Assembly: GCA_951406725.2 (NCBI GenBank)
Contig: OX597814.1
Span: forward strand, 106,268,001-106,332,000
From: Octopus vulgaris
Lineage: Eukaryota
Reading direction: 5' to 3'
Length of the DNA stretch: 64,000 nt
The notes below the pieces were generated by a model. It had not been told where the DNA came from. It searched no databases and was given only the letters and a program-made list of their open reading frames with translations. Below, piece by piece: positions 1,948 to 51,102 of the stretch; the stretch's first letter is position 1; each line of letters begins with the position of its first letter. A program made the translations under genes and the position numbers.

Positions 1948-2538
1948 ATCGACAAATATGCTACAAATTACGGTAAAGACACCAGAACTCCGAGAAATAG
2001 CATTAAAAGTGGACAACCTCACCAACGCAACATACACCAGAACACGTGGCAACATGAACACCCGTTTCACCACGAATCGAAGACGAACTACGGTAAGAAC
2101 TCTTCCCATTTTGTATGCAAACACCCTAATGCACACAACATGAACAAAAAGCACAAACAAAATAGATATTGTTTTGAACAGACCATTAGCAGTAGAAATA
2201 ACAGGAGATCATTTTCAAGACCTCAACAGAGATTACCCACAAGAAACTGGACAAAAAACCGATCTAGATCTAGAAGTAAACCCAGATCATTTCTCCAGGT
2301 GGTTAAAAACAATGCTAACAAGAAATTGAAAAGTAGCATACATAATACCAAAAACAAGACAGAAAACATAACGAAACCAAGTAAAGTACCACAACCAAAA
2401 CGCAAAATTCATCAAGCAAACATCAACAGGAATATAAATCATAACCAGAAAAAAATCCATTTTTTTACGTCAGGACAACAAACACCGGAGAAAGAAAAAA
2501 TCCAAGAGGAAACATACCCCAAACAACTGAACGTATAG
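1948..2538 (+). CDS. Upstream basic, low-complexity ORF of the PLE (5'-truncated), overlapping the RT frame
   Basis: ORF track 1873..2538. The part before ~1948 runs through flanking inverted-repeat and TA DNA and is probably fortuitous. The remaining ~195 codons are K/R/N/H-rich (RSRSRSKPRS) and overlap the RT frame over 2445-2538. Confidence 0.5.
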   Translation: MDKYATNYGKDTRTPRNSIKSGQPHQRNIHQNTWQHEHPFHHESKTNYGKNSSHFVCKHPNAHNMNKKHKQNRYCFEQTISSRNNRRSFSRPQQRLPTRNWTKNRSRSRSKPRSFLQVVKNNANKKLKSSIHNTKNKTENITKPSKVPQPKRKIHQANINRNINHNQKKIHFFTSGQQTPEKEKIQEETYPKQLNV

Positions 2539-4772
2539 ATCCTAAAATAATTAATTTATCAAAAAGAGATCTTGACAATGATGAAATCCAACTTCTGTCA
2601 AAAGGACTGAAATTCACACCTACACCAACAGCCAACCACCAAGAATTAAAGGAGGATATCCAAAAATTCTGTCGAAAATTACGACTTGTAGAATTCTTCG
2701 CTAACAAAAGTAATGAGATTGATGAATCCCTAGTAAGGAATAAATCAAATTTCACCCCACCAAAAGGAAGAAATAACTACCTTGACCAATACATTGATAT
2801 CCTGTCTAAATTTCCCCTTAGACGCAATACCAATGTTAGGCCAAACATTAGCAAATCAGAGATGTCTGCATGTAAACGTATACAAAACGATCAAACAATA
2901 ATAATTAAACAAGCAGATAAAGGTGGTGCAATTGTTATTATGGATACCGAATACTATAAGGATTTGGTTGAAGACCAACTGAAGGATACAACCTTCTATT
3001 GTGAAATACCCGCAAATATAGACCACCACATCATGAAAAAGATCAACAACCTGATTTCAACACACCACAACTCACTTACGGATAATGAAAAAGACTACAT
3101 CACCAATTTTGAACCAAAACCCAGCAACTTCTACGGCTTACCAAAAATACACAAATCAAAAAACATTCAACAGGCAGTAAAAGAACAAGAAAGTGAGTAC
3201 ATAAAATTATTACATCCAAAAGACCTAAAACTTAGACCTATTATAGCTGGTCCAGCATGCCCTACACACCGTCTAAGCAATTTTATTGACATTGTTTTGA
3301 AACCACTATGTACTTACATACCAAGTTTCATCAGGGATGACATCGACTTCCTGTCCCATCTTCCCAAAACAACAGAAACAAATTCAGTTTTGCTAAGTTT
3401 TGATGTGGTAAGCCTCTACACCAATATTCCACACGATTTAGGAATAAAGGCGATTAAATACTGGTTAGAAAAACATAGAGAAGTGATTCCCAGCAGATTC
3501 ACAGTGCCATTTATATTAGACACAGTCAAACTTATTCTAGAAAATAACACATTCTTCTTCAATGGAAAGAATTACATCCAAATTAGAGGCACGGCGATGG
3601 GAACGAGGTTTGCTCCCGTTTACGCCAACTCTGTAATGGGATACTTAGAAGAACAACTCTACCAAGAGGTGGAGGTAAACTATGGCACTGGATTTAGAAA
3701 GTATATTGAAAAGGCATGGAAGAGATACCTAGACGACTGTTTCATAATCTGGACAGAATCTCTAAATACTCTGGAAGAGTTCAATATCCTCCTGAACAAC
3801 CTACACCCATCTCTCAAATTTACAAAGGAGATGAGTAGTACCAAATTACCATTCCTGGATATAATGGTAATTAAAAAAGACACCACCATCACCACAGATA
3901 TATACTATAAACACACAGACACACATCAATACCTAAATTTTAAGTCGTGCCATCCACCACATACAAAACGTAACATCCCATACTGCCTAGCCAGAAGAAT
4001 TTGTACTATTGTAGAAGATGCAAATATCAGGAACAAACGCCTAATAGAACTAAGAGAATTTTTGCTCAAACAAAAATACCCATCTCTACTTATAGAAAAT
4101 GGCATACAGCGGGCTATAAAAATACCTATACAACAACTTAGGACGACCCAAGGAAGAGGAAAACAAGAACAAGTCATACCATTCATAGTGACACACAACC
4201 CATGTCACCAGAATATCTTCAACATTGCCAAAGCAAACCTTCCAATCATTGCCCAAAGTAATGAATTAAAAGACATAATCAAGGATCGAGCTATGGTGCT
4301 TAGTAAAAGACAGCCTAAAAACTTGAAAACATTACTAACAAAGGCAAAATTTGACCTCAGCAACAAAGACCAAACATTCACGGTATCTAAATGCAATGAT
4401 AGCCGATGTGGCACATGCCAATTCATACATACCGGTCAATATATAAACACAAAAACCGGGAAAATATTCACAAACGCGAATATGAACTGCAAAAGCAGAA
4501 ATTTAATTTACTGCATCAAATGCCCAAATTGTGAAGAAATATATGTAGGTCAGACGGGAAACGCACTATTAGAACGCTCACGTGTACACCGGCAACAGAT
4601 TAGAGACCCAGAGGTCCGTCAGATACCTTTGAGTAACCACCTAGCAACATGTGGTCGGAAAATATATATAATATTTCCATTCTACAAATTACACAGCCCA
4701 AGTGAAATCGAGAGGAAAATCAGAGAAAAGAATTTTATTGATAAATTCGAACCCAAGCTAAATAAGCAATAA
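2445..4772 (+). CDS. PLE reverse transcriptase / GIY-YIG endonuclease polyprotein (open frame 2445-4772; first AUG only at 2862)
   Basis: RT motifs: IKQADKGG, FYGLPKIHK, LRPII, SFDVVSLYTNIP, QIRGTAMG, RYLDDCF, LPFLD. Endonuclease: NLIYCIKCPNCEEIYVGQT...R...H...H (CCHH). Manual translation shows the frame is stop-free back to TAA at 2442-2444 and encodes the PLE N-terminal signature IINLSKRDLDNDEIQLLSKGLKFTP. Confidence 0.93.
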   Translation, partial: PEKNPFFYVRTTNTGERKNPRGNIPQTTERIDPKIINLSKRDLDNDEIQLLSKGLKFTPTPTANHQELKEDIQKFCRKLRLVEFFANKSNEIDESLVRNKSNFTPPKGRNNYLDQYIDILSKFPLRRNTNVRPNISKSEMSACKRIQNDQTIIIKQADKGGAIVIMDTEYYKDLVEDQLKDTTFYCEIPANIDHHIMKKINNLISTHHNSLTDNEKDYITNFEPKPSNFYGLPKIHKSKNIQQAVKEQESEYIKLLHPKDLKLRPIIAGPACPTHRLSNFIDIVLKPLCTYIPSFIRDDIDFLSHLPKTTETNSVLLSFDVVSLYTNIPHDLGIKAIKYWLEKHREVIPSRFTVPFILDTVKLILENNTFFFNGKNYIQIRGTAMGTRFAPVYANSVMGYLEEQLYQEVEVNYGTGFRKYIEKAWKRYLDDCFIIWTESLNTLEEFNILLNNLHPSLKFTKEMSSTKLPFLDIMVIKKDTTITTDIYYKHTDTHQYLNFKSCHPPHTKRNIPYCLARRICTIVEDANIRNKRLIELREFLLKQKYPSLLIENGIQRAIKIPIQQLRTTQGRGKQEQVIPFIVTHNPCHQNIFNIAKANLPIIAQSNELKDIIKDRAMVLSKRQPKNLKTLLTKAKFDLSNKDQTFTVSKCNDSRCGTCQFIHTGQYINTKTGKIFTNANMNCKSRNLIYCIKCPNCEEIYVGQTGNALLERSRVHRQQIRDPEVRQIPLSNHLATCGRKIYIIFPFYKLHSPSEIERKIREKNFIDKFEPKLNKQ

Positions 4773-7718: not shown

Positions 7719-8430
7719 CGGGGCTGGACAAAATAATGGAAACATCTAGCATCATAAATATCTATAAAACCGTCAAAAGCTTGTTTATTTTTATGGTTTT
7801 CGATTTATTATTGGTGTTTGCTAAAATTGCTGTTTCTTTTCAGGTATCATCAGAAAAAGGTAATTAAAATTCATTAGACTGACAGATCTATCGGACTTTC
7901 AAAGAGGTCAAATTGTTGGTGCTTGTATGACAGGTGCTATCATAACGAAAACAGCTGAAATGTTTGGTGTATCAAGAAGTACTGTCTCGAAGGTAATGAC
8001 AGCCTTTGAACAAGAGGAAAAAGTCCTTGTCGAAACAAAACTCCGGAAGAAAACCAAAACTTTCAGATAGGGACCATCGGACTCTTACGCGAATTGTTAG
8101 AAAGGATCACAAATGGACAGCTCTCAAAATTACTACAGAGCTTAATGACCTCCTCGAGAACCCAGTTTCCATAAACATTGTTCACTGGGAGCTGCACAAA
8201 GCTGGATTTCACAGGAGGGCTGTAATCAGAAAACCACTACTTTCAAAAACAAACGTTCCAAAGCGTTTTGAGTGGAGTAAAAACCCTAACCCTAACCCTG
8301 GAGCAGTGGGAGAATGTTATTTTCTCGAACGTGTCATCCTTTCACTTATTTCTGACCACCAACCGAGTGTACGTGTGGAGACAGCTAAATGAATCATTTG
8401 ACCCAGACTGACTTCTTTCAACTGTTAAAC
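7719..8430 (+). pseudogene. Tc1/mariner transposon remnant (left end plus disrupted transposase)
   Basis: TA followed by a Tc1-like terminus CGGGGCTGGACAAAATAATGGAAACA. Frameshifted pieces translate as DLSDFQRGQIVG...TAEMFGVSRSTVSKV (HTH), SGRKPKLSDRDHR...IRKPLLSK and W.NVIFS...RVYVWR. It is truncated within the DDE domain. Confidence 0.88.
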
Positions 8431-17487: not shown

Positions 17488-18534
17488 TATGTACACACAC
17501 ACACACACACACAAACATAAAACCAATATTTCACTCACACTTCATATTTATGGCCTATATTTGTTTTATAAGCTTTCTTAATGAATTCTCGTCTCGTCGT
17601 CGAATGTCTCACTAACAATATCTTTCTTTTAAGTCACACTTCTATCACGTGGTTTGTTTATTTTTCTCTCAACATCTCTCAATATAACCATTGAATTGTT
17701 TCGACTCAGATGCCGCCGTGGTGTGTCTGCTTCCACAACTAGTCTAACCCTTCTTTTCCACAGCGACGTATGTTGCGGAGTGTTTTGCTGTAGTGGGAAC
17801 CAAACATGACTGGAATATTTACTCATTCAATGAAATAACAGACTTTTCTTTTTCTTTTTTTTTTTTTTTTGAATAATGGGTCAAATTGCTATTCGCTGCC
17901 GATCATTAAATATCAGTAGATAATAATCAATAAAAACAATATAATTAAATGTAAGGTAATTAAGTCAAATTACATTGCTTGTTCAATAAAATATTTTCCA
18001 ATAATTTATTTATTCATTTCTCTTTTGATTGCATATAAGATATTATGATGTTTATCGTTTTTATACAATGAAGAAGAATGAAGAAATTCTAATGAGAGAG
18101 AAAATGCTGTATGAACAGTGGAATATTTATTCTTCGTATTTTTTTAATGGAAAACTTACTCAAAAGAAGCTTTGTCTAAGTATGACAGAAATGTTTTATT
18201 AATAATCTCCATTAATTACCAATCGTTGTTCTTCTTTACACACATCTCTCTTTATACTCGACTGTTGGTCTGTCTGTCTGTCTATTTCAATCTCGTCTCC
18301 ATTAACGCTCACAAACATTTAATCGTCCTCAATTCGTCAATTCGTCGCAATTGACGGTGTAGAACCAGTCCTTACACAGCTAATCGAACTTCTACGTCAC
18401 CACTCGAAACTTATAGTAAGAGAAGGCGAATTCCTTCGAATCACGCCTAAGGGTTCAAAAAAGGAAAGGACGATCAGGGCGGGAAAGATTATGGGTTTGT
18501 TTGAGTGACCTAGGGTTAAATACCATCAATATTT

Positions 18535-18763
18535 AATTCTTTATTGCCCACAAGGGGCTAAACATTGAGGGGACAAACAATGACATACATAGGTATTAAG
18601 TTGATTACATCGACCCCAGTGCGTAACTGGTACTTATTTAATCGACTCCGAAAGGATGAAAGCAAAGTCGACCTCGGCGGAATTTGAACTCAGAACGTAG
18701 CGGCAGACGAAATACCACTAAGCATTTCGCCCGAAGTGCTAACGATTCTGCCAGCTCGCCGCC
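18535..18763 (-). mobile_element. Full-length SINE (GGCGAGCTGGCAGAA family, Nin/Deu-like central domain)
   Basis: Reverse complement of the 38092-38320 type, with a degenerate 19-bp TSD (TTAAATACCATCAATATTT / TTAAATAACATTAATATTT). Confidence 0.88.
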
Positions 18764-19132
18764 TTAAATAACATTAATATTTTCACTCAGAACTTCAGAA
18801 GAGTGGACCACTCAAGTAGCGGTTCATTAGTTGATTGTTTGCTTCGTGTCACATCGCTGCGTTCTTGGCCAGAACATTCTCAACAACCCAACTAATTTTC
18901 CTAGTCTAGACGCTGGTCACGCTTCATTAAAATTCTCTTCTTTCAAACACTTTATTTATTGCTTACTTACGAAGGGAGGACCCTTAATTATTTTTTTCTC
19001 AGGGATCCCCACACAGGTGGAAGAAATAAGGGAGTTTTTCCGCAAGCCAGAGATTTAGCTCAAACTACTAAAACTTACTTAACTCGGCTTGAGGGTCAGG
19101 TGAGAGTGGTAGTGGTGGTGTTAAGTTGAGCA

Positions 19133-19742
19133 ACGGTGAGCTGGCAGAAACGTTAGCACGCCAGGCGAAATGCTTATCGGTATTTCGTCTGTTGCTACGT
19201 TCTGAGTTCAGATTCCGCCGAGGTCGACTTTGCCTTTCATCCTTTCGGGGTCGATAAATTAAGTACCAGTTACGTACTGGGGTCGATATAATCGACTTAA
19301 TCCGTTTGTCTGTCCTTGCTTGTCCTCTCTGAGTTTAGCCCCTTGTGGGTAGTAAAGAAATAGGTATTTTGTCTTCCGCTACGTTCTGAGTTCAAATTCC
19401 GCCGAGGTCGACTTTGCCTTTCATTCTTTCGGGGTCGATTAAATAAGTACCTATTTCTTTATTACCCACAAGGGGCTAAACATAGAGGGGACAAACAAGG
19501 ACAGACATAGGTATTAAGTCGATTACATCGACCCCAGTGCGCTACTGGTACTAAATTTATCGACCCCGAAAGGATGAAAGGCAAAGTCGACCTCGGCGGA
19601 ATTTGAACTCACAACGTAACGACAGACGAAATACGGCATAAGTACCAGTTACGCACTGGGGTCGACATAATCGACTTAATCCGTTTGTCTGTCCTTGTTT
19701 GTCCCCTCTGTGTGTAACCCCTTGTGGGCAGTAAAGAAATAA
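19133..19742. mobile_element. Compound SINE array (forward full, forward partial, inverted, forward partial)
   Basis: Four pieces of the same family, with an inverted block at ~19450-19637. Confidence 0.85.
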
Positions 19743-26471: not shown

Positions 26472-27200
26472 TCTTGTGCGCGCGGAGTGACGAAACCGTT
26501 CTGCACGCTCTCGTTCAGTGTCCTTGCATTGCTGACTAGTTGGGTTACGTCGAACAGTTGCTTTCACGTGTGGGACGGATCCGTCTGTCGGCTGAGTCTG
26601 TATTGATGATGGCACCGCCGCTCTCCTTCAATTGAGCAGACAAAACAGTTTTCCTTTGCCTTATGGCTATAACGAAAGAAGCGGTTTGGCGGACAGAGCT
26701 GAAGGCATGAGGACAGATACATTCCTTTTTGGTAGAGCTATCGTTGACTTCTTCGAGTTTCACTCGAAGAGGAAACTGGGAGTGAGGAGGAAAGTGCTGT
26801 CCTCGAGTGAGTTTATTGAAAGGTGGGTGAAAGTTGCGGAAATAGTAAGAGTGGATGGTAGTTCTCTTAGTTTAGGCCTGTGGGTCGGAGGGATGGAATT
26901 ATAGAGGGTACTCGCTCTTGGGCTTTAAGGAAAATCTCAAACAGTGGGGTTCTTCGATGTTCCCCAGAGACCTTCCTATATCAGGAGGTCCACATCTCTC
27001 TCATCTTCCCCGCCACTTTTTTCTTTAACCTTTGTATGCTATGCATATGTCCCTTATATTTCAGTGTGTACCGAGTATATTTCCTTTCTTTCTTTCTTTC
27101 CTATTTTATCATTTCAATATGATATGTAAACTCCAACACTTTATGTCTGACTTTGTATTGTCCCTCTGATCCCTCGTTTTTGTGGCAAATAAAGGAAATC
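26472..27200 (+). mobile_element. L1/Tx1-type LINE 3' fragment ending in (ATC)n
   Basis: CARSDETVLHALVQC zinc-knuckle remnant, downstream ...KEAVWR..., a T-rich 3' UTR, then AATAAAGGAAATCATCATC. Confidence 0.7.
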
Positions 27201-27211
27201 ATCATCATCAA

Positions 27212-27277
<66 letters not shown>

Positions 27278-27278
<1 letters not shown>

Positions 27279-30200
27279 TTTCTATGTTTGACTTTTGCTT
27301 TATATTTGTACAAGTTGGCTCCAGGTCTCGCCTAGGGACCTAAAGACACTACAAATTGGAAGTTCATGTTGGTGTTATGCCTATAGTGGTATATATTTGG
27401 TTTTGTACATAGTGTTGTTCAAGAGAATGTTTAAGAAACCATAAGAAAATTATGTTTGTTTTAAAACTTGAGATTACATAGAAAGTATTTTGCGTAGGAT
27501 ATAGGCAGTTCCCATGAGCACTATCTTTTGAATTTCTGCCATTTTGGGGTTTCCTGGTATCTGAGTTAGGTAGCAATCAGCCCCTTTTGCTATCATTCCC
27601 AGGGCACCTATGACAACAGGTATTATTTTAGTCTTCAGGTTCCACATTTTGCTAATTTCTATTTCAAGATCTTTATATTTGCTCAGTTTTGGTAGGTCTT
27701 GACAGATACGTTTATATCGATTGGGACAGTCATATCAATGAGGAGGCATGTTCTTTGTCTGAAGTCTTTCAATATGATTTCTGGCCTATTTGCATCTATC
27801 TTTCTGTCAGTTTGAATGGGGAAGTTCCAGAGGAGTGAGATGTGGTCATTTTCAAGCACTGGGGGTGGTTTGTGTTCCTACCATTTTTTTTTCGTGGGAC
27901 AAATCCAGGTTTTTGCAGATTACTTTGGCGCATTTTTCTAATCCAAATTTCATATCTATTTCTTTGGTAAATCCATGAACTGTCTTTAATAGTGTTTCCA
28001 GCTGTTCGTCATTTGCAGCGTATAGTTTTAGGTCATCAATATATAAAAGGTGGCTGATCGTTTTGCCGTAACATTTATATCCGCATCCAGTTCTATTTAG
28101 CATATCAGATAGAGGTGACAGTGCCAAGCAGAAAAGGAGTGGAGGGAGCGTGTCTCCCTGGAATATTCCTCTTCTAATGGGGATGGTTTTCATGAGTCCC
28201 TCTTTTGTTTGGAGCTGTAGCACTGTTTGCCATTTATTCATAGAGTGCCCTATGAATTTTATAATTGTTGGTGCTACTTTGTTAATGGCAAGTGTTTCGA
28301 GGTTCCATGTGTGGGGGATGCTATCAAACGCCTTTTTGTAGTCGATCCAGGCCATACTGAGGCCTTTCTTCTTTCTGTGGCTGTCTTCAGTTATGGCTTT
28401 ATTAATAATTAGTTTATCTTTACAGCCATATGAGCCTTTGCGGCATCATTTCTGCTCTTCTGGAAACAGGTTGTTTTCGTCCAGGTGCTTGTTGAACCTT
28501 TGCGATATCACTGCAGTAAATGCCTTGTACATTGTAGGGAGACAGGTTATAGGTCTGTAGTTTTCTGGTTTTGCTGTCTCATTTGATTTGGGAATTAAGA
28601 TGGTTTTCTCCTTCGTGAGCCATTCAGGCATTGTCTCTGGCTCTGCTAGTATGTTGTTAAAGTTTTCAGCCAGCAATTTGTGCATTCCTGTTAGATATTT
28701 CAACCAGAAGTTGGGGATCTTGTCATGCTCAGGTGCCTTCCAGTTGCTTAGTCTTTGCAGTGCCTGGATGACCTCTTCGGTTGTTATTGGGGTCCAAAGT
28801 TGCTCAGATGCTGAGTTTGTTGTTTTAATACTCCTTTTTTTTGGTTGTTCGTTCGCCGAGCATATTTCTCTCCAGAATTCTTCTACTTCTGCCGTTGGTG
28901 CTGCAGTGATTTCTATTTTATTTTTGCCAAGTTCTTGGTGGAACTTTTTGGGGCTGGAGTTGAACTTTTTGTTTTGTTCAAAGAAGCGCTGGCGTTTCTC
29001 GTACCGGCGGATCCTTTGTGCTTTGGCAAGGATATCTTGCTTCAGCTTTTCTTTTATCTCAGGTAAATCTTTTTCTGTGATGTTATATTTGCGGAGTATT
29101 TTTGTTTTCTTTTTGTTGCTCAGTAGCGTTGATTGTCTACTGATTTCATTAAGAATCGACAGATCTTTTCTCTTTTTTTGTATTTTGTTTTGGATGTTAT
29201 TTATCCACAGGGTTTGTTTGGGTGGTGGTAGTCCTGTTTGGATGGGTTTGAGTGAGTATCCAGCTTCTTTTGTGGCTGCAGTGGCTGCTGCGTATACTAA
29301 GTCATTTAGCTCAGTGATATCGCTTTTTGTTTCAGTGGCTATTAGTTCCGTGACGGCTAGGTTTATGCTGTTTATAATTGGTGTTGTTGTTTCGCCTATT
29401 TTGATTTTTGGGAGGTATGGTCAGTGGTCCATTTTGAGCTCTGTGGTTTTCAGTTCTTTGACTAGTTTAGTTTTTATATTATCATAATCATTAGGCTTCC
29501 CTTCGTTTTTTCCAGGTTTTAGATTTGTGTCGCCTTCGTTCTTATTTATATGTTTGTTTGCTGTGTTTTGGCTTGCAGTTTGTCGTGTATTATTATGCAT
29601 CCTTACGGTCTGGGTTTGTTGTTTTTTGTTTACATCGTGTTTGTTGGGAATGTTACGTTTGTCTTCGTGTTTTACTGTTTCAGTGTTTATATTATTGGGC
29701 ATTGTTGTATGGCTTCTATCTACATTTTCCTGGTATATTTTTTTCTTTTAGATGTTCTATTTCTATTTCTGATATTTTCTTGCGTTGAGAATGTATCTTC
29801 GTACGTTAGCTAGTTTATTAGGGTTCATTGCTGTATCCAAGTCTATATTTATATTATTTTCCTTCCATATTTTATATGTATGTGTTGTTGTGTTTTCATT
29901 TTTTGGGTAGAGCACTGCTGTGAAGTATGCGTGTAGGATAGAAATGTATTCCTCACGTGTCCATTTATGTCTTTTGGGTTTTATTTGCGGGACATGAGGA
30001 ACAACGTCCGGCCCATTATTTTGACGGTCGTCATTTTCGTAGGGTACCGGTCCGTTCATTTCTGTTGTCACATTGTTTTGCACGTGTAGTTTTTCGTACA
30101 TTTTGTGTTGTAAGTTTAAAGTACGTACCTCCCGATTGTTATTCTTGGGTTGAATAATATCGGTGGTATTTAATTTCTTCGTAGTTCCTTTGTACATTGT

Positions 30201-30475
30201 GTTTGGGGTCGGGGATGATCTGGTGTTGATGGATCGTAATGTATCACGCATGTTTACATGTGTTGTGTTAGAGGTGGAGATGATATCGAGTCAAAATACA
30301 TCATTTAGTTTCGAAAATAGTAATAAATTTTAATGAGTATTACTTACTCGGATACAGTCCAATCCTTTGTTAGTAAATCTTTGGCTCCATACGATGTCCT
30401 TGTTTTCGATGTTTGTGGATAGATTTCGGAGCTCTGTTTTATCGTTCTTACATCTTAAACGTCCCCCGGTGTTCC
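27278..30475 (-). mobile_element. Chimeric R4/Dong LINE: family A 5' end to RT, fused to family B C-terminus
   Basis: N-terminal RHKWTREEY...LANVRRYI, RT motifs YRPITCLPT, AWIDYKKAFDS, RGIFQGD and YIDDLKLY. At 27920-27923 it jumps abruptly to ICKNLDL...PVLENDH. (ATT)n lies at both ends. Confidence 0.92.
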
Positions 30476-30493
30476 TTATTATTATTATGTTCC

Positions 30494-30528
<35 letters not shown>

Positions 30529-30586
30529 ACATCTACACACACATACATAACACATCTACACACACATATACAAACACACACACATA

Positions 30587-30664
<78 letters not shown>

Positions 30665-30672
30665 CATTATAG

Positions 30673-31500
30673 GAGTTCTACCGGTCAATCTATATCAATC
30701 TGCTTCAGCTGTTTGACTATATATTTGCTTACTGTTCCCAAAGCACCAATTATTATAGGCACGTCATTTACTGTTCTCATGCTCCAAATGCTTCCTATTT
30801 CAAATGTTAAGGAATTGTATTTTCTTTTTGTTTTTCTTTCCTTTTTCTTTACGATCCTGGAATCAAACGAACATGATGGGTTAATATGTAAGCAGCTTCG
30901 CTTTTCCTTATCTATACTTGTAATATCTGGTCTATTGTTTTCTAACTTCTTATCCGATTGAAGCGGATATTCCCACAAAAATCTTCCATTTCTCCGACTC
31001 CAGTACTCTTTCGACTCGATGATTGTACCATGTGTTTCCAACTTTAAATCCCCATTTCTGGTACAATTTCCAATGTAAATCATTTACAACCTGATCCTGC
31101 CTCCATTTCTTATATTCTTCCTGTGCCAACTTGGGGCATTCTTCCACAATATGTACCGCTCTTTCGTTCCAAGTTCCGCAGGTTCTATATTTTTCTGACA
31201 CATTCTCTCCATTTATATTTTTCACAAGTTGTTTGTTTTTATCGCTTGATCTTGGGCTGCTACAATTAGACTCTGTTTCTTTTTTTAATTTCCCCCTTTT
31301 TTAATCAAGCCCATGATTTTGTTCTTCATACGTCTTCAGTGGCTCTCCAAAATTGGCCAGACACAGGTTTCACTTCGATCTGTCTCACGTCCTCTGAATT
31401 TCACCCTTGTCCGTTTCTCCTATCACGCGCTTCATCGCCTGTTCTTTATTCTGGCTTTAGTAGTTTTTCGGTACTTCTCTGTAAATACTCTACAATACTT
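30673..31500 (-). mobile_element. Degraded R4-type LINE 3' fragment
   Basis: HIVEECPKLAQEEYK, LWEYPLQSDKKLENNRPDI, VPIIIGALG. Confidence 0.85.
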
Positions 31501-31879
31501 CTTTCCATCTGTATTATTAACATTATTGTTGTTGTTGTTCTAGAGTAATCATCATCATTATCGTCATTATTATAACCAATATCACAATCGTCTTCTTCAC
31601 CGCCATCACCATCATTATGATGTGAGATAGACATGAATAGTATCTTTGTTTTGGAGTACAAATGAGTTGAACAATTGACAAGAATTATTAGTGCTTAATT
31701 AAAATGTTTTAACCGATATTTGTAGTATTAAATTAACAAATTAGTAGAATCAGTATAATTAAGCGATTAGTAGTATAAAAGGGTTAGTAGTATTAATAAA
31801 ATTAATTAGAAGTATTAATTGCACTAAAGAGTTTGTTCTATAAAAAATATTAAATATTTAGTAATATTAGTAGTACTAA

Positions 31880-32090
31880 AGGTGATGAACTGGTGCAGAA
31901 CGCTGGACAAAATGCTTAGCGATATTTCGTCCGTCTTTACATCCTGAGTTCAAATTCCACCGAGGTCGACTTTGCCTTTAATTTTTTTTTTTGGGGGGGG
32001 GCATAAAATAAGTACCCGTTATGCACTGGGGTCGATGGAATCGACAAGCACCCAGCCTCGAACTTGCTGGTCTTGTGCCAGAATTTAAAT
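31880..32090 (+). mobile_element. Degraded SINE
   Basis: 38092-38320 family. Confidence 0.7.
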
Positions 32091-32228
32091 GCGATGTTAG
32101 TAGTATTAAGCAAATACTATTACTAGTATTGGTATGAGATTCATGGGATTGGCATCACTCGTCATTCACCATCAACAAAAAACTATTTTTAAATCTCACA
32201 ACGAGAGATATTCAGCAACAGTACTTTG

Positions 32229-32602
32229 TAGTAAAGGTTGTTTGCCAACATAACATGGCAGTCCTGGTTTAGGACGAATGTTGCTGTAATTTAGCCTCAG
32301 GAGACATCGTCTTCAGTGGCTATACGACACGATCTGTGTCCTTACATATATTTCGAACGGGAATTTGGCAGCGCCACCTCTAGCCGAACAATTATTTTGT
32401 GCTGATGAAGGGAAATAACCCGGAAATCGTGATACACAGATATTGTTTTGAGCTGAGTTTGAGTGCTAGATTCCCTTGTTCGAAAATATAAGGACACAGA
32501 TCGTGTCGTATAGCCAGTTGGAGACGATGTCTTCTGGGGCTAAATTACCCCAAGTCATCCTAAATCAGGACTGCCATGTTATGTTGGCAAACAATCTTTA
32601 CT
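32229..32602. repeat. Inverted repeat (~140-bp arms) enclosing a hammerhead motif
   Basis: 32229-32368 is the reverse complement of ~32464-32602, with moderate divergence. Confidence 0.9.
32398..32438 (+). ncRNA. Minimal type-I hammerhead motif
   Basis: Reads TGTG-CTGATGA-A-GGG-AAATAA-CCC-G-GAAA-TCGTGA-TA-CACA, triplet AUA. Confidence 0.75.
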
Positions 32603-32702
32603 CCAAAAAGCTCATACCTCTTGTTAGTCTCCTCAAACCTTGCCCAGTTCCATTAACAATCCCGCCTTCATATCATTAGTCTTGGATTTCTTTCTCCTAA
32701 AC

Positions 32703-33698
32703 CAGTGGTTCTCAAACCGGGGTCCGCAGTCCACTTGGAGACTGCGAAGCTGTTTTAGGGGGACCGCGAAGGGACGCTGAAGTATTGTGAAAACAGGGTG
32801 GTTTGAGACAGTTAAGTTTTAAAATTTCAAGACTTTCAATTTTTTGCATGCTATCGTTCTTTTTTGTCATTTGTCCCCAAAAGTCCACATTACTCCTAAA
32901 CACTCGATTGGCAGATAGAAAATATGCGGGTATAACGGTTGATCGTGTACGTGCTGTCGGTATTTTTCTTTTCACATTTGTTTTGTAAACAACTGATCAA
33001 CTGATTCCCCATATTTTCACATGCATTTATTGTATCCCAATAAGACGACGAGCTGGCAGAAGCGTTAGCACACCAGGTGAAATGCTTAAGTGGCGAGCTG
33101 GCAGAAACATTAGCACGCCGGGCGAAATGCTTAGCAGTATTTCGTCTGTCTCTACGTTCTGAGTTCAAATTCCGCCGAGGTCGACTTTGCCTTTCATCCT
33201 TACGGGGTCGATAAATTAAGTACCAGTTACACACTGGGGTCGATGTAATCGACTTAATCCATTTGTCTGTCCTTGTTTGTCCCCTCTGTGTTTAGCTCCT
33301 TGTGGGTAGTAAAGAAATAGGTATTTTGTCTGCCATTACGTTCTGGGTTCAAATTCCACCGAGGTCGACTTTGCCTTTCATCCTTTCGGCGTCCATTAAA
33401 TAAGTACCAGTTACGCACTGGGGTCGATGTAATCGACTTAATTTCTTTGTCTGTCCTTGTTTGTCCCCTCTATGTTTAGCCCCCTGTATCCCAATGGGGC
33501 ATTGCCTGAATTAAGTTGTGGTTTTCGGGGTTGCGAGTCTATAGGCAGTGCGGTTCATAGCCCAGAAATTATGGTACACGAATATATATTCATTTTTTCC
33601 ATGTTGATTATCCTGCATTTTATAGGTAACTTCGAATCATCGAGAAAACCATAACGGGGCCGGCACGTGAAATCTTTTGAAAAGTTTGAGAGCCATTG
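32703..33698. mobile_element. hAT (Charlie-like) non-autonomous DNA transposon
   Basis: TIRs CAGTGGTTCTCAAAC and GTTTGAGAGCCATTG, with 8-bp TSD TCCTAAAC / TTCTAAAC. Confidence 0.85.
33042..33484 (+). mobile_element. Tandem (partly dimeric) SINE nested in the hAT element
   Basis: Duplicated head, then a full unit and a second partial unit. TSD TGTATCCCAAT at 33031-33041 and 33485-33495. Confidence 0.88.
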
Positions 33699-34609
33699 TT
33701 CTAAACTAAAGCCTTTTATGGACCTTTAAACACTTCTTCCACCATGTATGAATATTATACATAACTCCTCTTCCTTTATACACACTTGTTTAAATACTCT
33801 TATAAATAAAGCAGTATATTACACACGTGTGTATAATAAATGCATTAAGTGTACGTAAAAGATATTTCCAAGTTTTCATTCATCTTCAATTTTTTTTTCT
33901 AACCATTTTCTCACTTTCTTTCCTCACCACCAAATTCCTCATCATATTTCCTCTCAAATCTTTTTCAAGCTTCCTTCTTTGTTTTCGGTCAGGAATATCC
34001 ACCCCACCGTCCTCTTCCCGCTTCCACATTCCTCGTCCACTCTTTTAATTCTTTATCTTCCCTTTTGTACTTTTCCCATATTTATTCTTGATCGTCCTTT
34101 CTATTCCTTGCCATTTTTTTTCTTCTTTCTCTGATTTATATCCATTCTGTTATTGCTTTTACACAAATACACAACATTTTCTTTTGTGTGTGTTTTTGTT
34201 TCTTTGTTTTTTTCTTTTAGTTTTGATTCTGCATCTTTCATGTTACTTTCCTTTCGTTTTTTTTTATTCCTCTCTTTCTTTCTTTCGCTCTTTCTTATTT
34301 TCTTTTTTTCCCCTCTTTCTTTCTTTCGCTCTTTCTTATTTTCTTTGAGCCTCCCAAATGAATCAAGTATTTCACATTAAGCCAGCGTCAGAAATTGCTG
34401 CAACAAATCAAACCCTACGTATTCTTTGTTTGCATGCGTTAGCGCTGACTCTGTCTCCGAAGACTAACGCATTGGAATCAGCTTCAGGTCAATTCCAGCC
34501 AAGGATCGAATGGTGCAAAAACAACAACAACAACTGTAAAGACAAAAAAAAAACGAAGATGTGATGGAATTCAAAGGAAGAATTCTGATGGAATTTGTTG
34601 AATATTTTC

Positions 34610-35100
34610 ATCACTACTATGACGACAACCTCAGTCATCAGAACTACCACCGCTACCAGCACCACCACAACTACTACCGCCGCCACCACTACCAACCCCA
34701 CTCCCTCCCCACCTTCACTTCCGCAAGCACAACTACCACCGCCACCGCTACTGTCAACACAGCCACCATCTCCACCACCACTACCATCATCACCGCGACT
34801 ACTACCACTTTCACCACCACTACCGTCACCACCGACATCACCAAATCTGCTAGAACTACAGCCATCTCTGAAAATACTACTACCAGGACCGCAACTTCCA
34901 GAACCCTTGCGAATACCATCCACGTCACCATTGCCACCATCACCAATAATACTATCACGGTAACTACCACCAACACCACTACAACTACCACCACCGACAC
35001 AACTACTACCACCACCACCACCACCACCACCACCACCATACTACCGTCACTTCCGCTATCGTTACACCACCAACAACATCGTTACCACAATCACCACAAT
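34610..35100. repeat. Degenerate (ACC)n low-complexity tract
   Basis: ACC/ACT/CAC triplet runs. Confidence 0.9.
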
Positions 35101-35659
35101 TACAAACGGAAACTTCTGTCAACATAACATTATTTACGTCATTTTAATCACGGTTAGTCACACCACAGATACATTAATCAAAGGAGTGTTTTTGCGGGAT
35201 TTCCACAGGACTGGCACGGTGGGATTTGAAACTACTAGAAAGACAACTACATTGATAAATATTGATTTCTCTTGAAATATTTGAGAACAACAAATTCGTG
35301 AACCCAGTTGAATGTTCCATTGTTACAAGGATAATAAACAGAACAAAATATAAGGAAAGCGGAGATTATTAAAATGGCAGCAACGAAGACACGAGCGGCA
35401 ACGATAACCACAACAACAACAATATTCTTTTCAAACTTTGGCACAAGGCCAACAAATAAGAGTAGGTAAGTCGATTACATCAACTCCAGGGTTTTACGAG
35501 TACTTAATTTATCGACCCCCGAAAGGATGAAAGTTAAAGTCGACTGCGGCGGTATTTGAACTCGGATTGTAAAGATGGACGAAAGGCCGCTAAGCATTTT
35601 TCCGGCGTGTTAACGATTCTACCAGAACGCCGCATTAGCAACAATAACAATGTTAACAA

Positions 35660-37500
35660 GATGATTTTCTTCAACTATTTTCAACACCCAGTTACCTGTA
35701 GTTTTAAGTTATTGTTCGAATCCAAGTTCTTTGATTTACAAGTTTTTCAAAGGGGGAAGCAGGTTTGGTACTTCTGATTTTTTTTGTTACAGTAACAGCA
35801 GTTGTCTTCATGTATCTGGTGTCTGGAGAACAACCATGGATTGGAAGAAGGAAATGCTGGCCTTACCAGATGCCAAAAGCACTCAAAGACCAGCCAGCGT
35901 TGACCATCACTGCATAAACAGAAAAGTAAATGTCTGCAAAGTATTTAAATTGGTAATGCCATTCTCAAGACATGTACAGAGTCAGTCAGTACTATTTTCC
36001 GTAATTCTTGCAGGGATGACTTCCCAAGCATCTGCTTCGAATACTTTTCTGTTCCTTGTTTCAACATGCCAAGTGCACCGTCTATCACAATTACTTTATA
36101 GGTCTTAAGATGCCACATTTTCTCAATTTCAATTATTAGATCTTTATATTTACTGAGCTTTCAAAATTTTTTCATTTTGTCAATGTTCACAGGAAAATCT
36201 CAGAGGATTGTCACATTTTCGTCTCCTGTCACTGCATCAAGGTGATGTTTGTAGCATACACCAGTCTTTGTGTCGTAAGATTTGCATATTACCCAATGCC
36301 TATTACTCTTTATACTCCTGGAGAGCCAACACTTTGTAACCTAAAAGATGATCAATAGTCTCAACTTGCTCATCACAAAATCTAGACTTTGGGTCAGTTC
36401 CGTTTCTGATTACATTGGCTTGAAAGTTGCACTTTGAATGACACTGGTCTTTTACAGCCAAACTAAAGCCCCCACTCTCTGCTTCTAGCCCAGAACTCCA
36501 CAACATCTGGTGAGTGAGAGATTGATATGCATTAGACTCTTAGCTACAGAGGACATGCTGTCTGTGCAGGGGTTTTTGGTCCCACTTAACGTACAGTTTC
36601 CGTTGACCTTCGCCAATATTTTGATGTTCTTCACATTTTTATTTGCAGAATCACCATAACTTTCAAATTTTTCATTATTCATTCCTAATTCTTCCGCAAA
36701 ATGTCTTTGCTTACTTTTTAATTGAAAGTCATTTTTTTTTGTTTTCATTTTCTTCAACTATTTTCAACACCCAGTCACCTGTAGTTTTAAGGAATTGTTC
36801 GAATCCAATGTCTGATTTTTGCATAAGACTCCAAGCTGGATCGTTCTTCAACCTCCAGTTTTGCATCGGGAGATAGAAGCGAACCACATCTGCTTTTGCG
36901 TGATATAGTTTATTACAGGTCAGAAGTTCCCTGATCTTGGGGTCCATTTTCTTTATTTCCTTGAGGTTCCAATTTATGATGCTACAGATATAGATGGCAA
37001 CTGGGATCGCAAGATGGTTTATAGCAGATATTTTATTCTTTGAGTTCACCTCTGTTGCAAGACAGCATGTACTCTTCGGGAGTATTCCTTCCTAATTTCC
37101 TCTTTCATGCTGGCATTATGAATATGTTGGCCTTGATTGACACCCAAATATTTGTAAGTTTGTCCCACATCGATTTACATTGAATTCGTCATACTGCTTC
37201 CTTGAATGCTGCCTATTCCCATTTTCCAGTCCAAACTTTATTCCTACGACATCACTGAACACCTTAACCGTTCTCAACAGTTCTTCCAACTGACTGGTAT
37301 TTTTGGCATACAGTTGTAGATCATCCATTTAAAACAGATGATTTATAATATTTGCCGTCTATTTTGCAGCCATATTTCGTTTTGTCGAACTCCAGAATCA
37401 AACACATGAGTGTAATGCAAAATATAAGGAGATAAAACGAGTCACATATAATAATACCTCAGTTAATGCTTATGATGCTGGAATTTTGGAATCGACAGCT
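35660..37500 (-). mobile_element. Degraded R4-type LINE (RT to endonuclease)
   Basis: MDDLQLYAKN, KFGLE, NKISAINHLAIPV, GLEAESGG...KDQC, FCDEQVETIDHL. Confidence 0.85.
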
Positions 37501-37669
37501 CCATCAGTGTGTGACGAGCGAGACAAGATGCATTTCGTCCGTCTTTACATTCTGAGTTCAAATGCCACTCAGGTGGACTTTGCATTTCATCCTTTGGGGT
37601 CAATAAAATAAGTACAATATTTACATTATTTACATTTGACGGATATTTGTCCTCCTCTTGTTTGTCATT

Positions 37670-37715
37670 AGCATAACGTTTCGGCTGATATACCCTCTAG
37701 CCTTCATCAGGTGTC
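37670..37715 (-). ncRNA. Minimal hammerhead motif with degraded stem I
   Basis: Minus strand reads GACAC-CTGATGA-A-GGCT...AGCC-GAAAC-GTT. Confidence 0.6.
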
Positions 37716-37774
37716 TTGGGGGAAACTTCGAACCTGGATTCTCATTCCTAAGGTATTTTTCAATGTTATTATTT

Positions 37775-38620
37775 TTTCCTTCTTTATTCAAATTTTCTTC
37801 CATTTCCCACCGAGTGTTTTCCGTACACCTAGGGCAGAGAAGCTCATTGTATGCATTCCCAGATTACACAAGCAAATCCACAGGTAAAATATGTATTTAA
37901 AAAATAAATAAATAAATTGATGAATGGATATTGTTTTCACAGCGATAATGCTCTTCTCAGTACATGAACCGTTCCAGTTAACACGATTTTTTGCACTTCC
38001 TGTAGGGATGGTAAGCCTGGTATCATTTTCAAATAGGTTTCAGTACCTTTTTTTATCATTCCTAGAGATCCTACAATCGCTGGTACTGTAGGCGGCGAGC
38101 TGGCAGAAACGTTAGCACGCCGGGCGAAATGCTTAGCGGTATTTCGTCTGCATTACGTTGTGAGTTCAAATTCCGCCGAGGTCGACTTTGCCTTTCATCC
38201 TTTCGGGGTCGATAAATTAAGTACCAGTTACGCACTGGGGTCGATGTAATCGACTTAATACCTATGTCTGTCCCTGTTTGTCCCCTCTGTGTTTAGCCCC
38301 TTGTGGGTGATAAAGAAATAGGTACTGTAGTTGCCTTGAGATGCCACATTTTTTCAATTTCTATTAGCAGGTCTTTTATATTTACTTATCTTGTCAAATT
38401 CTTTCGCCGCTATATTGTGATCGCAAGGGATACTCATGTCAATTAACAAACACATCCTTTTTGTCTGATCTTTTATAATACTATCGGTTTATTAGCTTTT
38501 ATAGTTTTGTCGGTATGTACGGGGAAGTCTCAGAGAATCGACACATTTTCTCCCTCAGTCACAGCTTCAGGATGGTGTTTATAACATTTCTCAGCGGTTT
38601 TGATTTTATAATGCCGACAT
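37775..38620 (-). mobile_element. R4-type LINE 3' end (related to 23310-23932), interrupted by a SINE
   Basis: Has the same 3' terminus and KPDS...CLLIDMSIPCDHNIAAKEFDK as 23310-23932. Confidence 0.88.
38092..38320 (+). mobile_element. Young full-length SINE with 10-bp TSD
   Basis: TSD GGTACTGTAG at 38082-38091 and 38321-38330. Confidence 0.92.
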
Positions 38621-38641
38621 ATTATTATTATTATTATTATT

Positions 38642-41600
38642 CAGTAGTTTTATTTTTTATAGCGTGCTTTCACTTCACTACCGGGCGCAGCTCTGTGTAC
38701 CGTGGGTATGTGCTGTGATTTGTTGTGATGCACTGATGGTTATTGTATGAAAAGTGTTCTGCGTAGGATGTGTGCAGTGCCTAGTAGTGCAATTTTCTGT
38801 ATGTTATATGTGTTTGTAAGTCCTGGTGTTTTTGTTATGTATTTGTCTGAATATTTTTTTATCATGCCTAATGCACCTACTATGATAGGAATTGTTTCTG
38901 TTTTTAGATTCCACATTCTGGTTACCCCTATTTCCAGGTCATTGTATTTTGAAAGTTTCTCCATTTCTTTTAGAGACACGTTGTCATCTGCCGGTATTGA
39001 TACATCAATTAGAAAGCATTTTTTTCTTCATGATCTCTGACAACTATATCTGGTCTGTTGGCCTTAATTTTCTATCTGTGTGTATCGGCATATCCCAGAG
39101 CATGGTTGCTTTCTCGTTTTTTGTGACCTTTTCTGGTGTGTGCCTATACCATCTTTTTTCTGTTGTTATTCCATAATGTTGGCATAGCTTCCAGTGTATG
39201 TAGGTTCCAACTCTGTCATGTCTGTGAATATATTCCTTCTTAGCGAGGACTGGGCAGCCAGAGATAATATGATTTATTGTTTCTTGTCCATCTCCACATA
39301 TTCTGCAGTTACTTGTTATATTTCTTTTCATTACATGTTTTTGGCAATTCCTGGTGGGGAGGCTTTGGTCTTGTGCTGCAATTAAAAATCCCTCTGTCTC
39401 TGCTTTGAGTCCTGAGCTTCTCAACCATTGCTGGGATTTTTCTTTGTCTATTTCTTTTGCGTTTAGTTTAGTCCAGTATTTACCATGAAGGACTTTTCTT
39501 GTCATCGTTTTATCATGGTTCTTTGCTGTTCTAGTTTTAGTTTGGATTTCATTTGTTTTATAGCTTTTGTTGTTTCTTCATCTTCTTCTTCTTCTTCTTC
39601 TTCTTCATATCTATTAGGTGGTATGATTTCTTGTTTGTATTTGTCAGCTTCCTTAAATACTGAGAACAGTTTTTTGTTTTCCTCGTGTTTTGCCGCTATT
39701 TGTATCAGTTTTCCTTCCTTCTGAAGTAGATATTTTTGCAGTCCTATGGTGGTTATTTTATAGTAGTTTTCCAGCTGTATAAGGCCTCTACCACCTTCTA
39801 TACTTTGTATATATAGTCTTTCTATGTCAGATTTTAGGTGATGCATCCTAGATCCTGTCATTATTTTTCTTGTTTTCCTATCTATTTTGGTCAGTTCATT
39901 TAGTGTCCAGTTAAGGATATTGTAGCTGTAACTTATAACTGGGACAGCTAAAGTGTTAATACCTATTATCTTGTTTTTAGCATTGAGCTCTGTTTTTAGT
40001 ATTGATCTAACTTGTCTATAATATTCTTTTTTATTTTCTCTTTCATTTGTGTATGTTGTGTCTTATCTAGTTCATGGATTCCTAAGTATTTGTAAGTTTG
40101 GCTTTGGTCTAATTCTTTTATTTCATTGGTTTTATCTAGTGTGATGTTGTACTCTTAACTAGTTTTCCTCTTTTCATGGTTACTTTGGCGCATTTGTCGA
40201 ATCCAAATTTCATATCTATTTCTTTGGTAAATCCATGAACTGTCTTTAATAGTGTTTCCAGCTGTTTGTCATTTGCAGCGTATAGTTTTAGGTCATCAAT
40301 ATATAAAAGGTGGCTGATCGTTTTGCCGTAACATTTATATCTGCATCCAGTTCTATTTAGAATATCAGATAGAGGTGACAGTGCCAAGCAGAAAAGGAGT
40401 GGAGAGAGCGTGTCTCCCTGGAATATTCCTCTTCTAATGGGGATGGCTTTGGTTTTCACGAGTCCCTCTTTTGTTTGGAGCTGTAGCACTGTTTGCCATT
40501 TATTCATAGAGTGCCCAATGCATTTTATAATTGTTGGTGCTACTTTGTTAATGGCTAGTGTTTCGGGGATCCATGTGTGGGGGATGCTATCAAACGCCCT
40601 ATTGTAGTTGATCCAGGCCATACGTTTATATCGATTGGGACAGTCATATCAATGAGGAGGCATGTTCTTTGTCTGAAGTCTTTCATTATGATTTCTGGCC
40701 TATTTGCATCTATCTTTCTGTCAGTTTGAATGATGAAGTTCCAGATGAGTGAGATGTGGTCATTTTCAAGCACTGGAGCTGGTTTGTGTTCCCACCAGTT
40801 TTTTTCATGGTGCAAATCCAGGTTTTTTTCAGATTACCTAGTGAATATATTGTGCAGCTCTATCATACATGTTGAGATACTCTGTAGGCGCTAGAAGACT
40901 GCACTTGGAGACAACATGATCAATGGCTTCATTTTGTTGTTGACATACACATGTTGGGCTACTGCCGTTCTTTAATATGTTGACCTGGTAGTTCCTTGTT
41001 GGTAGGCATTGATCTTGATCTGTTATGATAAACCCTTCTGTTTCAGATTTTATGCCAGAGGCCATTAGCCATTGATGGGTCAGGGCTTTGTCAACATCTG
41101 CATTATTCGCTCTCTTTGGGTATTTGCCATAGAGAGGTTTTTCTTGCCATTTATCATTCAGTATATCTAAGGCAGCAGTTTTAGCACGGGTTTTCATGCG
41201 TTTAGCTTTTTCTGTGCTTGTTTCTTGTATGTCTAATTCCGAAATTTGTTGTACTCGGAATTCACTTAGATTTTTCTTTGCCTGTTTTGTTACTGAGTAT
41301 GATGCTTTCTTGTTTTCATGTTTTGAGACAAGTTTTAACATCCAGTCCTCAGAGTTTTTCAGGTAGGTGTCTAGGCCAATTGTAGCAATCTTCATTGTTA
41401 TTGCCAGTTGTAAAAGTCCACGGCCTCCCTCTTTTCTTGTCAGATAAAGTCGTTCTATATCTACCTTAGTGTGGTGCATTCTATGCATTGTCAACAGTTT
41501 TCTTATTTTTCTGTCAAGATTACATATTTCAGTATTTGACCAGTTAACGATATTGAAACTGTAAGTCACGACTGGTATGGCTAAAGCATTGATCGCTTCG

Positions 41601-41676
41601 ATCCTGCTTCTCGAATTCAGCTCTGTCTTGAGTATTGCTCTTACTCTGCGATAACATTCTCTCCTGATCCCTTCCG

Positions 41677-41678
<2 letters not shown>
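38642..41678 (-). mobile_element. Chimeric R4/Dong LINE: family B (5'-truncated) fused to family A RT through 3' end
   Basis: Family B part reads ECYRRVRAILKTEL...CVCQQQNEAIDHVVSKC...RPEI. The junction is at 40620-40623. Family A part reads AWINYNRAFDS...CRICGDGQETINHIISGC...HRHD...IPIIVGALG. Confidence 0.92.
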
Positions 41679-41773
<95 letters not shown>

Positions 41774-41804
41774 CATTATTATTATTATTATGATGATGAT
41801 GATG

Positions 41805-41867
<63 letters not shown>

Positions 41868-48102: not shown

Positions 48103-48896
<794 letters not shown>

Positions 48897-49050
48897 GGGA
48901 ATAAAGAAAATTCATTTATACTTTTACGACATTAAAAAACGGATTTCTTTCTGTTTTTGTACGTATTTCAAAAACTTATGGACTAAACTGGTTTTGAAAG
49001 TTCGCGGCACAAATAATAGCACACAAGCTCCTCATTTTCTCACCTCTCTT

Positions 49051-50069: not shown

Positions 50070-51102
50070 ATCATTTGGGATGAGGCGAAAATGAGCCATA
50101 AGGTTTCCTTTGGAGCTCTTGACATGTCCCTTCAGGATTGGAGACACAACACATGGCTCATGGGAGGTGCCACAGTCTTGCTTGCAGAAAACTTTACACA
50201 AACCCTTTCTGTGGTTCCAAAGGGGACAAGAGCTGATGAAATAAATGCCAGCATAAAGTCGTCCTTCCAATGGAGCAGAGTGCAAAAGCTAAGACTCACA
50301 ACCAATATGAAAATGCAGCTCAGTGGTGATGATGAACCTTTTCAAAACAACTGTTGGACGTCGGTAATGGCACTTCGGTTGGCGAGAAGGATGGCTGAGT
50401 AAACTTGCCTTTTGGACATATGGTGTCGGATTCAAAGGAACTAATGAATAAGATGTTTCCTAACCTGAAGTATCAGTTTACAGACCACAATTGGTTGAAA
50501 AATTGTGCCATTTAAGCACCAAAGAATGAGACAGTTGATGGTTTAAACATACTTTTCGAACAGTTGCCAGGTGAGTCTCACATCTACAATTCCATTGATG
50601 CTGTACTCAACATCGATGAAGCTGTGAATTATCCAGTTAAATTCTTGAATAGTCTAATATCACCTGGCATTCAACCTCACAACTTGCACCTCAAGATTGG
50701 AACACCAGTTATGCTGCTTCAAAACCTATATCCACCAAAGCTTTGCACTAGCACACGACTTATAATAAAGAATTTGATGCAACAGTCTTTGAGACAACAA
50801 TTTTGACTGGTAAAGCAAGCGGTGAGCCTGTATTCATTCCTAGAATTCCACTTATTCCCTCGGATATGCCTTTCCAGTACAAGTGCCTGCAATCCTTGTT
50901 GAAACTGAGCTTTGCAATGAGCATTAACAAGGCCCAGGGACAGTCTTTTGATGTGGTAGATCTGAACCTTGCGTAACCAGTTTTCTCCTATGGTCAACAT
51001 TATGTAGGGTGCTCAAAAGTCGGCAATGCTAATCATTTGTTTATTTATGCCCCACAAGGAAAGACCAAAAATGTTGTTTATCAAGAAGCTCTGCAGATTT
51101 AA
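50070..51102 (+). pseudogene. Helitron Rep/Hel PIF1-like helicase C-terminal remnant
   Basis: MGGATVLLA.NFTQTLSVVPKGTRADE, LRLTTNM, APKNETVD, KFLNSL...PHNLHLKIGTPVMLLQNL, IPRIPLIPSD, FAMSINKAQGQS, GKTKNVVYQEAL, broken by frameshifts and stops. Confidence 0.92.

Follow-up and report, generated by a model that had tools for sequence, protein, structure and literature searches.

Two LINE retrotransposons with exchanged halves around an 8-kb single-copy segment in the Octopus vulgaris genome

The locus and its LINE families

We analyzed a window of 64,000 nucleotides (OX597814.1, 106268001-106332000) from a 2.8-Gb genome assembly of 227 contigs. It contains two old LINE retrotransposons, A and B, which lie approximately 8 kb apart and have exchanged halves (Table 1). 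Self-comparison of the region from 26 to 43 kb recovered the minus-strand order B5'-P/X-A3'-Z-A5'-X/P-B3', where the slashes mark junctions J1 and J2, X is a segment of A, and P is a segment of B. Comparison with genomic copies of the two families gives the normal orders as A5'-X-A3' and B5'-P-B3'. An earlier reading of this DNA (the sequence-only reading) had described the same coordinates and block order for the two duplications, and had proposed that A reassembles into a full-length element of about 4.1 kb with permuted halves. This is borne out, as A5', X and A3' together form an element of 4102 nt that starts at the 5' end common to full-length family copies. Reassembled B (B5', P and B3') is 1486 nt and 5'-truncated. 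The span from J1 to J2 is 12,704 nt, one turn of the putative circle discussed below would be 12,260 nt, and TAA runs adjoin all four element ends.

Table 1. Coordinates of the parts of the exchanged LINE pair, given as positions in the window
Feature	Position	Strand	Basis
(TAA)63 array, before B5'	41679..41867	-	repeat scan
B5', LINE family B, 5'-truncated: post-RT region and CCHC zinc knuckle	40838..41678	-	tblastn and translation; adjoins P in family copies
P right copy, B endonuclease region, RPE allele	40620..40837	-	family alignment, allele counts
Junction J1, B to A, 4-nt microhomology GTAT (plus strand ATAC)	40620..40623	-	self-comparison
X right copy, A reverse-transcriptase core, YIDD allele	40180..40623	-	family alignment, allele counts
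A3', LINE family A: zinc knuckle, PD..D..K endonuclease region, 3' UTR	38640..40179	-	translation, Pfam, family copies
Short TAA run after A3'; may be the hidden site of a third join	38620..38639	-	
Z, ~8 kb older single-copy mosaic: three decayed RLE-LINE fragments, SINE-like and MITE-like repeats, unique DNA	30671..38619	.	
TAA / TG-rich / TAA array upstream of A5'; another candidate for the hidden third join	30476..30670	-	
A5', complete 5' part of LINE family A; minority haplotype as in A3'	28358..30475	-	family copies
X left copy, 6-base deletion, YIDD allele	27920..28357	-	family alignment
Junction J2, A to B, 4-nt microhomology GTAA (plus strand TTAC)	27920..27923	-	self-comparison
P left copy, RPE allele	27706..27923	-	family alignment
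B3', B ORF end and 3' UTR	27279..27705	-	translation, family copies
(TAA)22 after B3'	27213..27278	-	repeat scan

The elements of the A/B region are non-LTR retrotransposons. Their reverse transcriptase (RT) domain matches Pfam RVT_1 (E 8e-19), and they also have a CCHC knuckle and an endonuclease region in which the PD..D..K motif was read straight from the translation. The zf-RVT match (27.3 bits) falls slightly below the 27.5 cut-off. The best PDB matches of one family copy (L205) are R2 proteins (E 9e-33), and most of the 35 A copies listed have a TAA-type run ahead of their 5' start. In architecture and target, both families fit Dong/R4-type RLE LINEs, a label that is provisional as to clade. 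The 5' junction of Dong has been described as lying in TAA repeats (main text of PMC3774820), and Dong-R4 elements as recently active in Octopus vulgaris (main text of PMC13282606). The likeness to the elements in these two accounts consists of the RT, the CCHC knuckle, the PD..D..K endonuclease region and the TAA flanks found here.

Families A (L171-L210) and B (L032-L090, L105-L170) show mosaic subfamily haplotypes, which suggests frequent recombination or template switching among active lineages. In full-length A copies (L174, L187, L188, L191, L204, L205) the first 10-25 bases are often re-copied in tandem where the element begins, at the 5' junction, and a short re-copy of this kind is found at the 5' end of A in the window (30476-30495).

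The junctions and the origin of the element halves

The two X copies align with 423 matches, 15 mismatches and one 6-base gap (3.4% divergence over aligned bases), and the two P copies with 205 matches, 12 mismatches and 2 gap columns (5.5%). At the joins, 444 nt of A and 218 nt of B are thus present twice. The joins connect the RT of A to the endonuclease region of B, and each carries the four-base microhomology that the sequence-only reading had assigned to it. Around the two joins only 13 of 44 and 16 of 44 bases are identical, and the best local alignment between X and P scores 17. Both joins are therefore microhomology joins without extended homology, and not crossovers at homologous positions. 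Hairpins predicted at the four breakpoints are weak (-1.2 to -8.9 kcal/mol, calculated without a shuffled control).

If the chimeras belonged to a mobile subfamily, which the sequence-only reading had named as a refutation of its proposal, the same joins should recur at many loci; this was found for neither J1 nor J2. A 24-mer across J2 has a single match genome-wide with up to two mismatches, which is this locus. Among the 40 scored of 3487 candidates for J2, the 39 other matches all end upstream of the join, and among the 40 scored of 2021 candidates for J1, the 39 others all stop at the join. Of the 195 sampled loci that contain A or B sequence, both families are present at 18. The matches listed include seven abutting A/B pairs (six loci), all joined via TAA and none within coding sequence. 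There is no sign of mobility in these searches, and the chimeras appear to be restricted to a single locus.

We consider it very improbable that the arrangement is an assembly artefact caused by repeat collapse. When 56 nt across J2 were compared with contigs of four runs (X2, X4, X18 and X13, with four organism labels, including another sample under the same species label), none of the 30 pieces listed of 83 spanned the join. This would favor an artefact, but it counts for little because J2 lies between very deep repeats and assemblers drop rare paths between such repeats. Against an artefact, each copy of X and of P has private changes of its own, the joins lie between non-homologous sequences, and the window sits in a 226-Mb contig.

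Whether the halves of A derive from one copy was judged against 35 full-length X copies, from 40 A copies taken in positional order. Random X pairs in this set have a median divergence of 1.8%, and 66% of them equal or surpass the X pair of the window in similarity. Pairwise identity is therefore uninformative as a test of local duplication. In the literal sense the X copies are, as the sequence-only reading had named as grounds for abandoning its proposal, no closer to each other than to random family members; however, this comparison is the wrong test, and a shared derived base does set the pair apart. Both X copies encode YIDD (G>T), an allele found in four of 3046 exact 28-mer matches genome-wide, two of which are those in the window (2 of 3044 others). 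The two other carriers have no further private base in common with A in the window, only common variants, and a rare YIDD subfamily was rejected on this ground as the source of the shared base. The left and right X copies also agree at all 10 comparable subfamily sites, with an exact haplotype present in 2 of the 35 position-ordered copies, and A5' and A3' are both nearest to the same minority copies (L195, L196 and L210). The chance of sharing the private base is approximately 0.3-4% depending on the rate, before the haplotype match is counted; because exact-match allele counts favor young copies, the range includes a higher figure based on divergence. Given the rare base and the minority haplotype shared by X, A5' and A3', the statistical case is well supported that one A copy was split, permuted and partly duplicated, and the earlier suggestion that YIDD marks a local duplication of X holds.

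The corresponding case for B is moderately supported. Both P copies encode RPE (C>A), which occurs in eight of 2104 matches genome-wide, two of them in the window (6 of 2102 others), and is absent from the 54 full P copies in a set of 60 taken by position. With the inspected carriers of RPE on different haplotypes, a rare RPE subfamily was rejected as the source of the shared base. Seven of the 50 copies with data come within one site of the B5' haplotype, and the B3' haplotype is present in 5 of 54, four of these within the B5' subgroup. However, two sites at which the family is polymorphic separate the P copies, 40777 (C in 31 and T in 20 of 54 copies) and 40734 (C in 3 of 54, enriched in this subgroup). 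A rough model gives a 0.5-6% expectation for two such differences from new mutation, and they fit two separate B copies. Of the earlier proposal that RPE marks a local duplication of P, the rarity of the base stands while these two sites speak against it; an origin of both B halves from one copy is favored only a few-fold.

These sites bear on the alternative that J1 and J2 arose independently and look reciprocal by chance, whether by two deletions in tail-nested B-A and A-B tandems (with two As and two Bs) or as independent template-switch chimeras, or that one A was permuted while the B halves come from two different copies. The frequent co-occurrence of the families as tail-to-head neighbors, the differences between the P copies, and an X pair identity at the ordinary family level all agree with such an origin. 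However, it would require the chance sharing of two genome-rare bases (approximately 0.3-4% and 1.4-5%) and of minority haplotypes in both families, and the abutting A/B pairs found elsewhere give no precedent for a join inside a coding region. We regard independent events as distinctly unlikely.

Segment Z and the route of the rearrangement

Forty scored candidates in each of two genome searches with Z gave only repeat-level matches and no second copy. Apart from Z itself, the strongest matches cover 843 nt at 84% and 555 nt at 91% identity, both in repeats, and no unpermuted donor of the kind left by duplicative events was found among the scored candidates. The sequence-only reading had predicted a circle-closing junction within 30.5-38.6 kb. 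None was recognised in Z, where continuous older repeats span stretches of the segment; the junction could lie within a TAA run. Every RLE-LINE fragment and TAA run from 21400 to 42850, within and outside Z, is on one strand, although this is only a 1-in-2 argument. Strand skew and GC gave no clear signal in a comparison of Z with its flanks, so that composition does not set Z apart, and none of the scanned ORFs of Z has a Pfam match.

Several smaller features were observed in and near Z. A 74-base piece at 35664-35737 is 90.5% identical to 36747-36818 and may be an old LINE fragment or a templated scar. Two elements at 32210-32570 and 32700-33705, one near-palindromic and one split by a pair of repeats, are presumably MITE-like, and the pair SINE-like. 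Tandem and inverted clusters of a young SINE-like repeat occur at 18528-19741 and 33083-33487.

The nested order of P and X at one end and X and P at the other favors an intermediate that was circular, or re-entrant to the same effect, as the simplest explanation. Reasoning from the order of the blocks, one tandem duplication followed by deletions cannot produce the nesting, and linear routes need at least three unit copies. The reading that we prefer, and to which we give about an even chance, is that a circle of approximately 12 kb was excised from this same neighborhood and re-entered it, swapping the halves of A and B. At the start, A and B would have lain in tandem on either side of Z, some 8 kb from each other, with U and V on the outside (U-A-Z-B-V or U-B-Z-A-V). 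One step would be a reciprocal exchange between A and B with offset breakpoints. It would create J1 and J2 together, and fill-in or replicative copying would duplicate X and P. Recombination between two co-oriented TAA runs would be the other step. Either could have been the excision and the other the re-entry, with the same product; the third join would be invisible in TAA, and Z would never have left the locus.

The divergences of X and P are compatible with a single date (Fisher p=0.21), whereas an uneven distribution of post-event changes (4 vs 11, p=0.12) counts against the preferred reading. With one shared change vs 4-11 private changes per copy, the event would have taken place soon after both insertions. 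The combined divergence (27 of 655 sites) corresponds to approximately 6 million years at 0.0036 per site per million years, a date that holds if this octopus rate, taken from the main text of PMC13282606, applies here.

A distant origin of the circle was also considered. In this case a circle holding A and its flanks would have been opened in A and integrated into B, with the donor excised or later lost. The junctions and shared alleles fit this as well as they fit local excision, and there is precedent in cattle, human and ape genomes (main texts of PMC7450558 and PMC9132208). However, since the scored candidates include no donor of Z, cut-and-paste or later loss would be needed, no closing junction was recognised in Z, and older repeats run continuously across stretches of it. 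A putative target-site duplication of an old LINE (26476-27212) that would link V to U was rejected, as its score of 17 is reached by 30% of random windows and thus is no better than chance. Other copies of this family are without such target-site repeats. The end of U was likewise rejected as part of a split repeat, as it is unique (1 of 1 match). The old LINE itself lies on the plus strand and is a 5'-truncated repeat (approximately 79% identity) whose ATC/ATT tail extends into the TAA array that follows B3'.

We consider a distant circle unlikely. A local origin is favored over it on indirect grounds, namely the absence of a second copy of Z among the scored candidates, the clustering of the A and B families (18 of 195 loci), and the shared strand from 21 to 43 kb. 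Of the circle proposed by the sequence-only reading, the circular or re-entrant intermediate and the microhomology joins are retained. Its origin elsewhere and its integration by template switching stay conjectural; Z is single-copy, and a local route with the third join inside a TAA run yields the identical sequence.

The same product could have formed with no free circle, if a single replication fork made four local template switches of the FoSTeS/MMBIR type, two via TAA homology and two via 4-nt microhomology. The hundreds of duplicated bases at both joins fit replicative copying, and multiple template switches during replication are discussed for an insertion with large direct repeats and 1-4 nt microhomologies (main text of PMC9132208). 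Breakpoint features, according to the main text of PMC7450558, cannot tell NHEJ from MMBIR. However, the two microhomology switches would have to lie no more than 444 nt apart in A and 218 nt apart in B, a closeness for which reciprocal exchange accounts in one step while giving the same end product as the circle. We judge four switches at one fork to be quite unlikely.

Comparison with known rearrangements and other features of the window

The type of rearrangement is already known. In apes, the insertion of an lcr16a circular intermediate mediated by recombination between SVA_B and SVA_D has been described (Damert 2022, PMC9132208), and the main text of the same paper lists separately segments with large direct-repeat flanks and 1-4 nt microhomologies. 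As proposed here, a circle carrying one retrotransposon enters another, and reciprocal chimeras are left at both ends of a permuted segment. However, the ape joins are homeologous SVA crossovers, whereas those in the window are non-homologous joins of RT to endonuclease regions. According to its main text, target-site duplications prove the swap and donors survive in the ape case; here such duplications would be hidden in TAA and no donor was found among the scored candidates. Also different here is the duplication of both partners around the joins.

Circular DNA has also been implicated in human segmental duplications (Chicote 2020, PMC7450558; Takahashi and Innan 2020, PMC7188851) and in the cattle KIT translocation (Durkin 2012, as cited in PMC7450558 and PMC3927395). 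The main texts of the first two describe block permutation in the same orientation, microhomology joins, and breakpoints in non-homologous repeats, and the locus resembles these cases. A3' precedes A5' on the same strand, and both are of one minority haplotype as judged against family copies. However, those cases are duplications recognised against a surviving donor. The events in the Chicote set are at least 22 kb with scars of 1-27 bp, whereas the segment here, of 12 kb, has no second copy among the scored candidates and its overlaps measure 444 and 218 nt. The locus works like these events, but no donor copy as in the duplicative circle class was found among the scored candidates, and the joins have none of the homology of the SVA class. 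It also resembles a hypothesis of transposition by cutting and re-insertion of circles (Holt 2022, bioRxiv 10.1101/2022.06.22.497135), in which excision and re-insertion are balanced and no second copy arises; re-insertion at the original locus is mentioned there for yeast. That hypothesis concerns megabase mammalian synteny, in contrast to the single base-level case presented here. A limited literature search of main texts found no cephalopod case of circle re-integration and no LINE chimera of this kind.

The locus shows that a balanced rearrangement of the circle type can be read from a single genome when young LINE families serve as the yardstick and the test is a count of alleles across the genome. 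The small set of germline circle re-insertions would grow if such events are common, with implications for how repeat-rich genomes are reshuffled. A more general idea, which we think improbable, is that TAA arrays seeded by Dong/R4-type LINEs are recurrent pop-out and pop-in sites, so that segments between arrays circularise and re-enter locally while offset exchanges without homology shuffle LINE halves. Were this true, new RT/endonuclease chimeras would form and the genome would be permuted without change in copy number, and the locus would be the first base-level fossil of the process in a cephalopod-type genome, with copying of more than one turn on the circle side.

Among 139 ORFs scanned for host exons that might give synteny, five had Pfam matches, all of transposon type, and no host gene was found in the window. 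Being a single event in a window where the scan showed no host gene, the rearrangement probably has no biological consequence. Other mobile elements in the window include, on the plus strand, a 775-aa open frame at 2445-4769 with weak RT and GIY-YIG matches that resembles a Penelope-like element, Tc1/mariner-type transposase fragments at 7864-8389, and PIF1-like helicase fragments at 50070-50803 that are possibly a decayed Helitron. Finally, an inverted repeat at 48179-48897 surrounds a (TA)51 run, and its arms align over approximately 590 bases with 83% identity.
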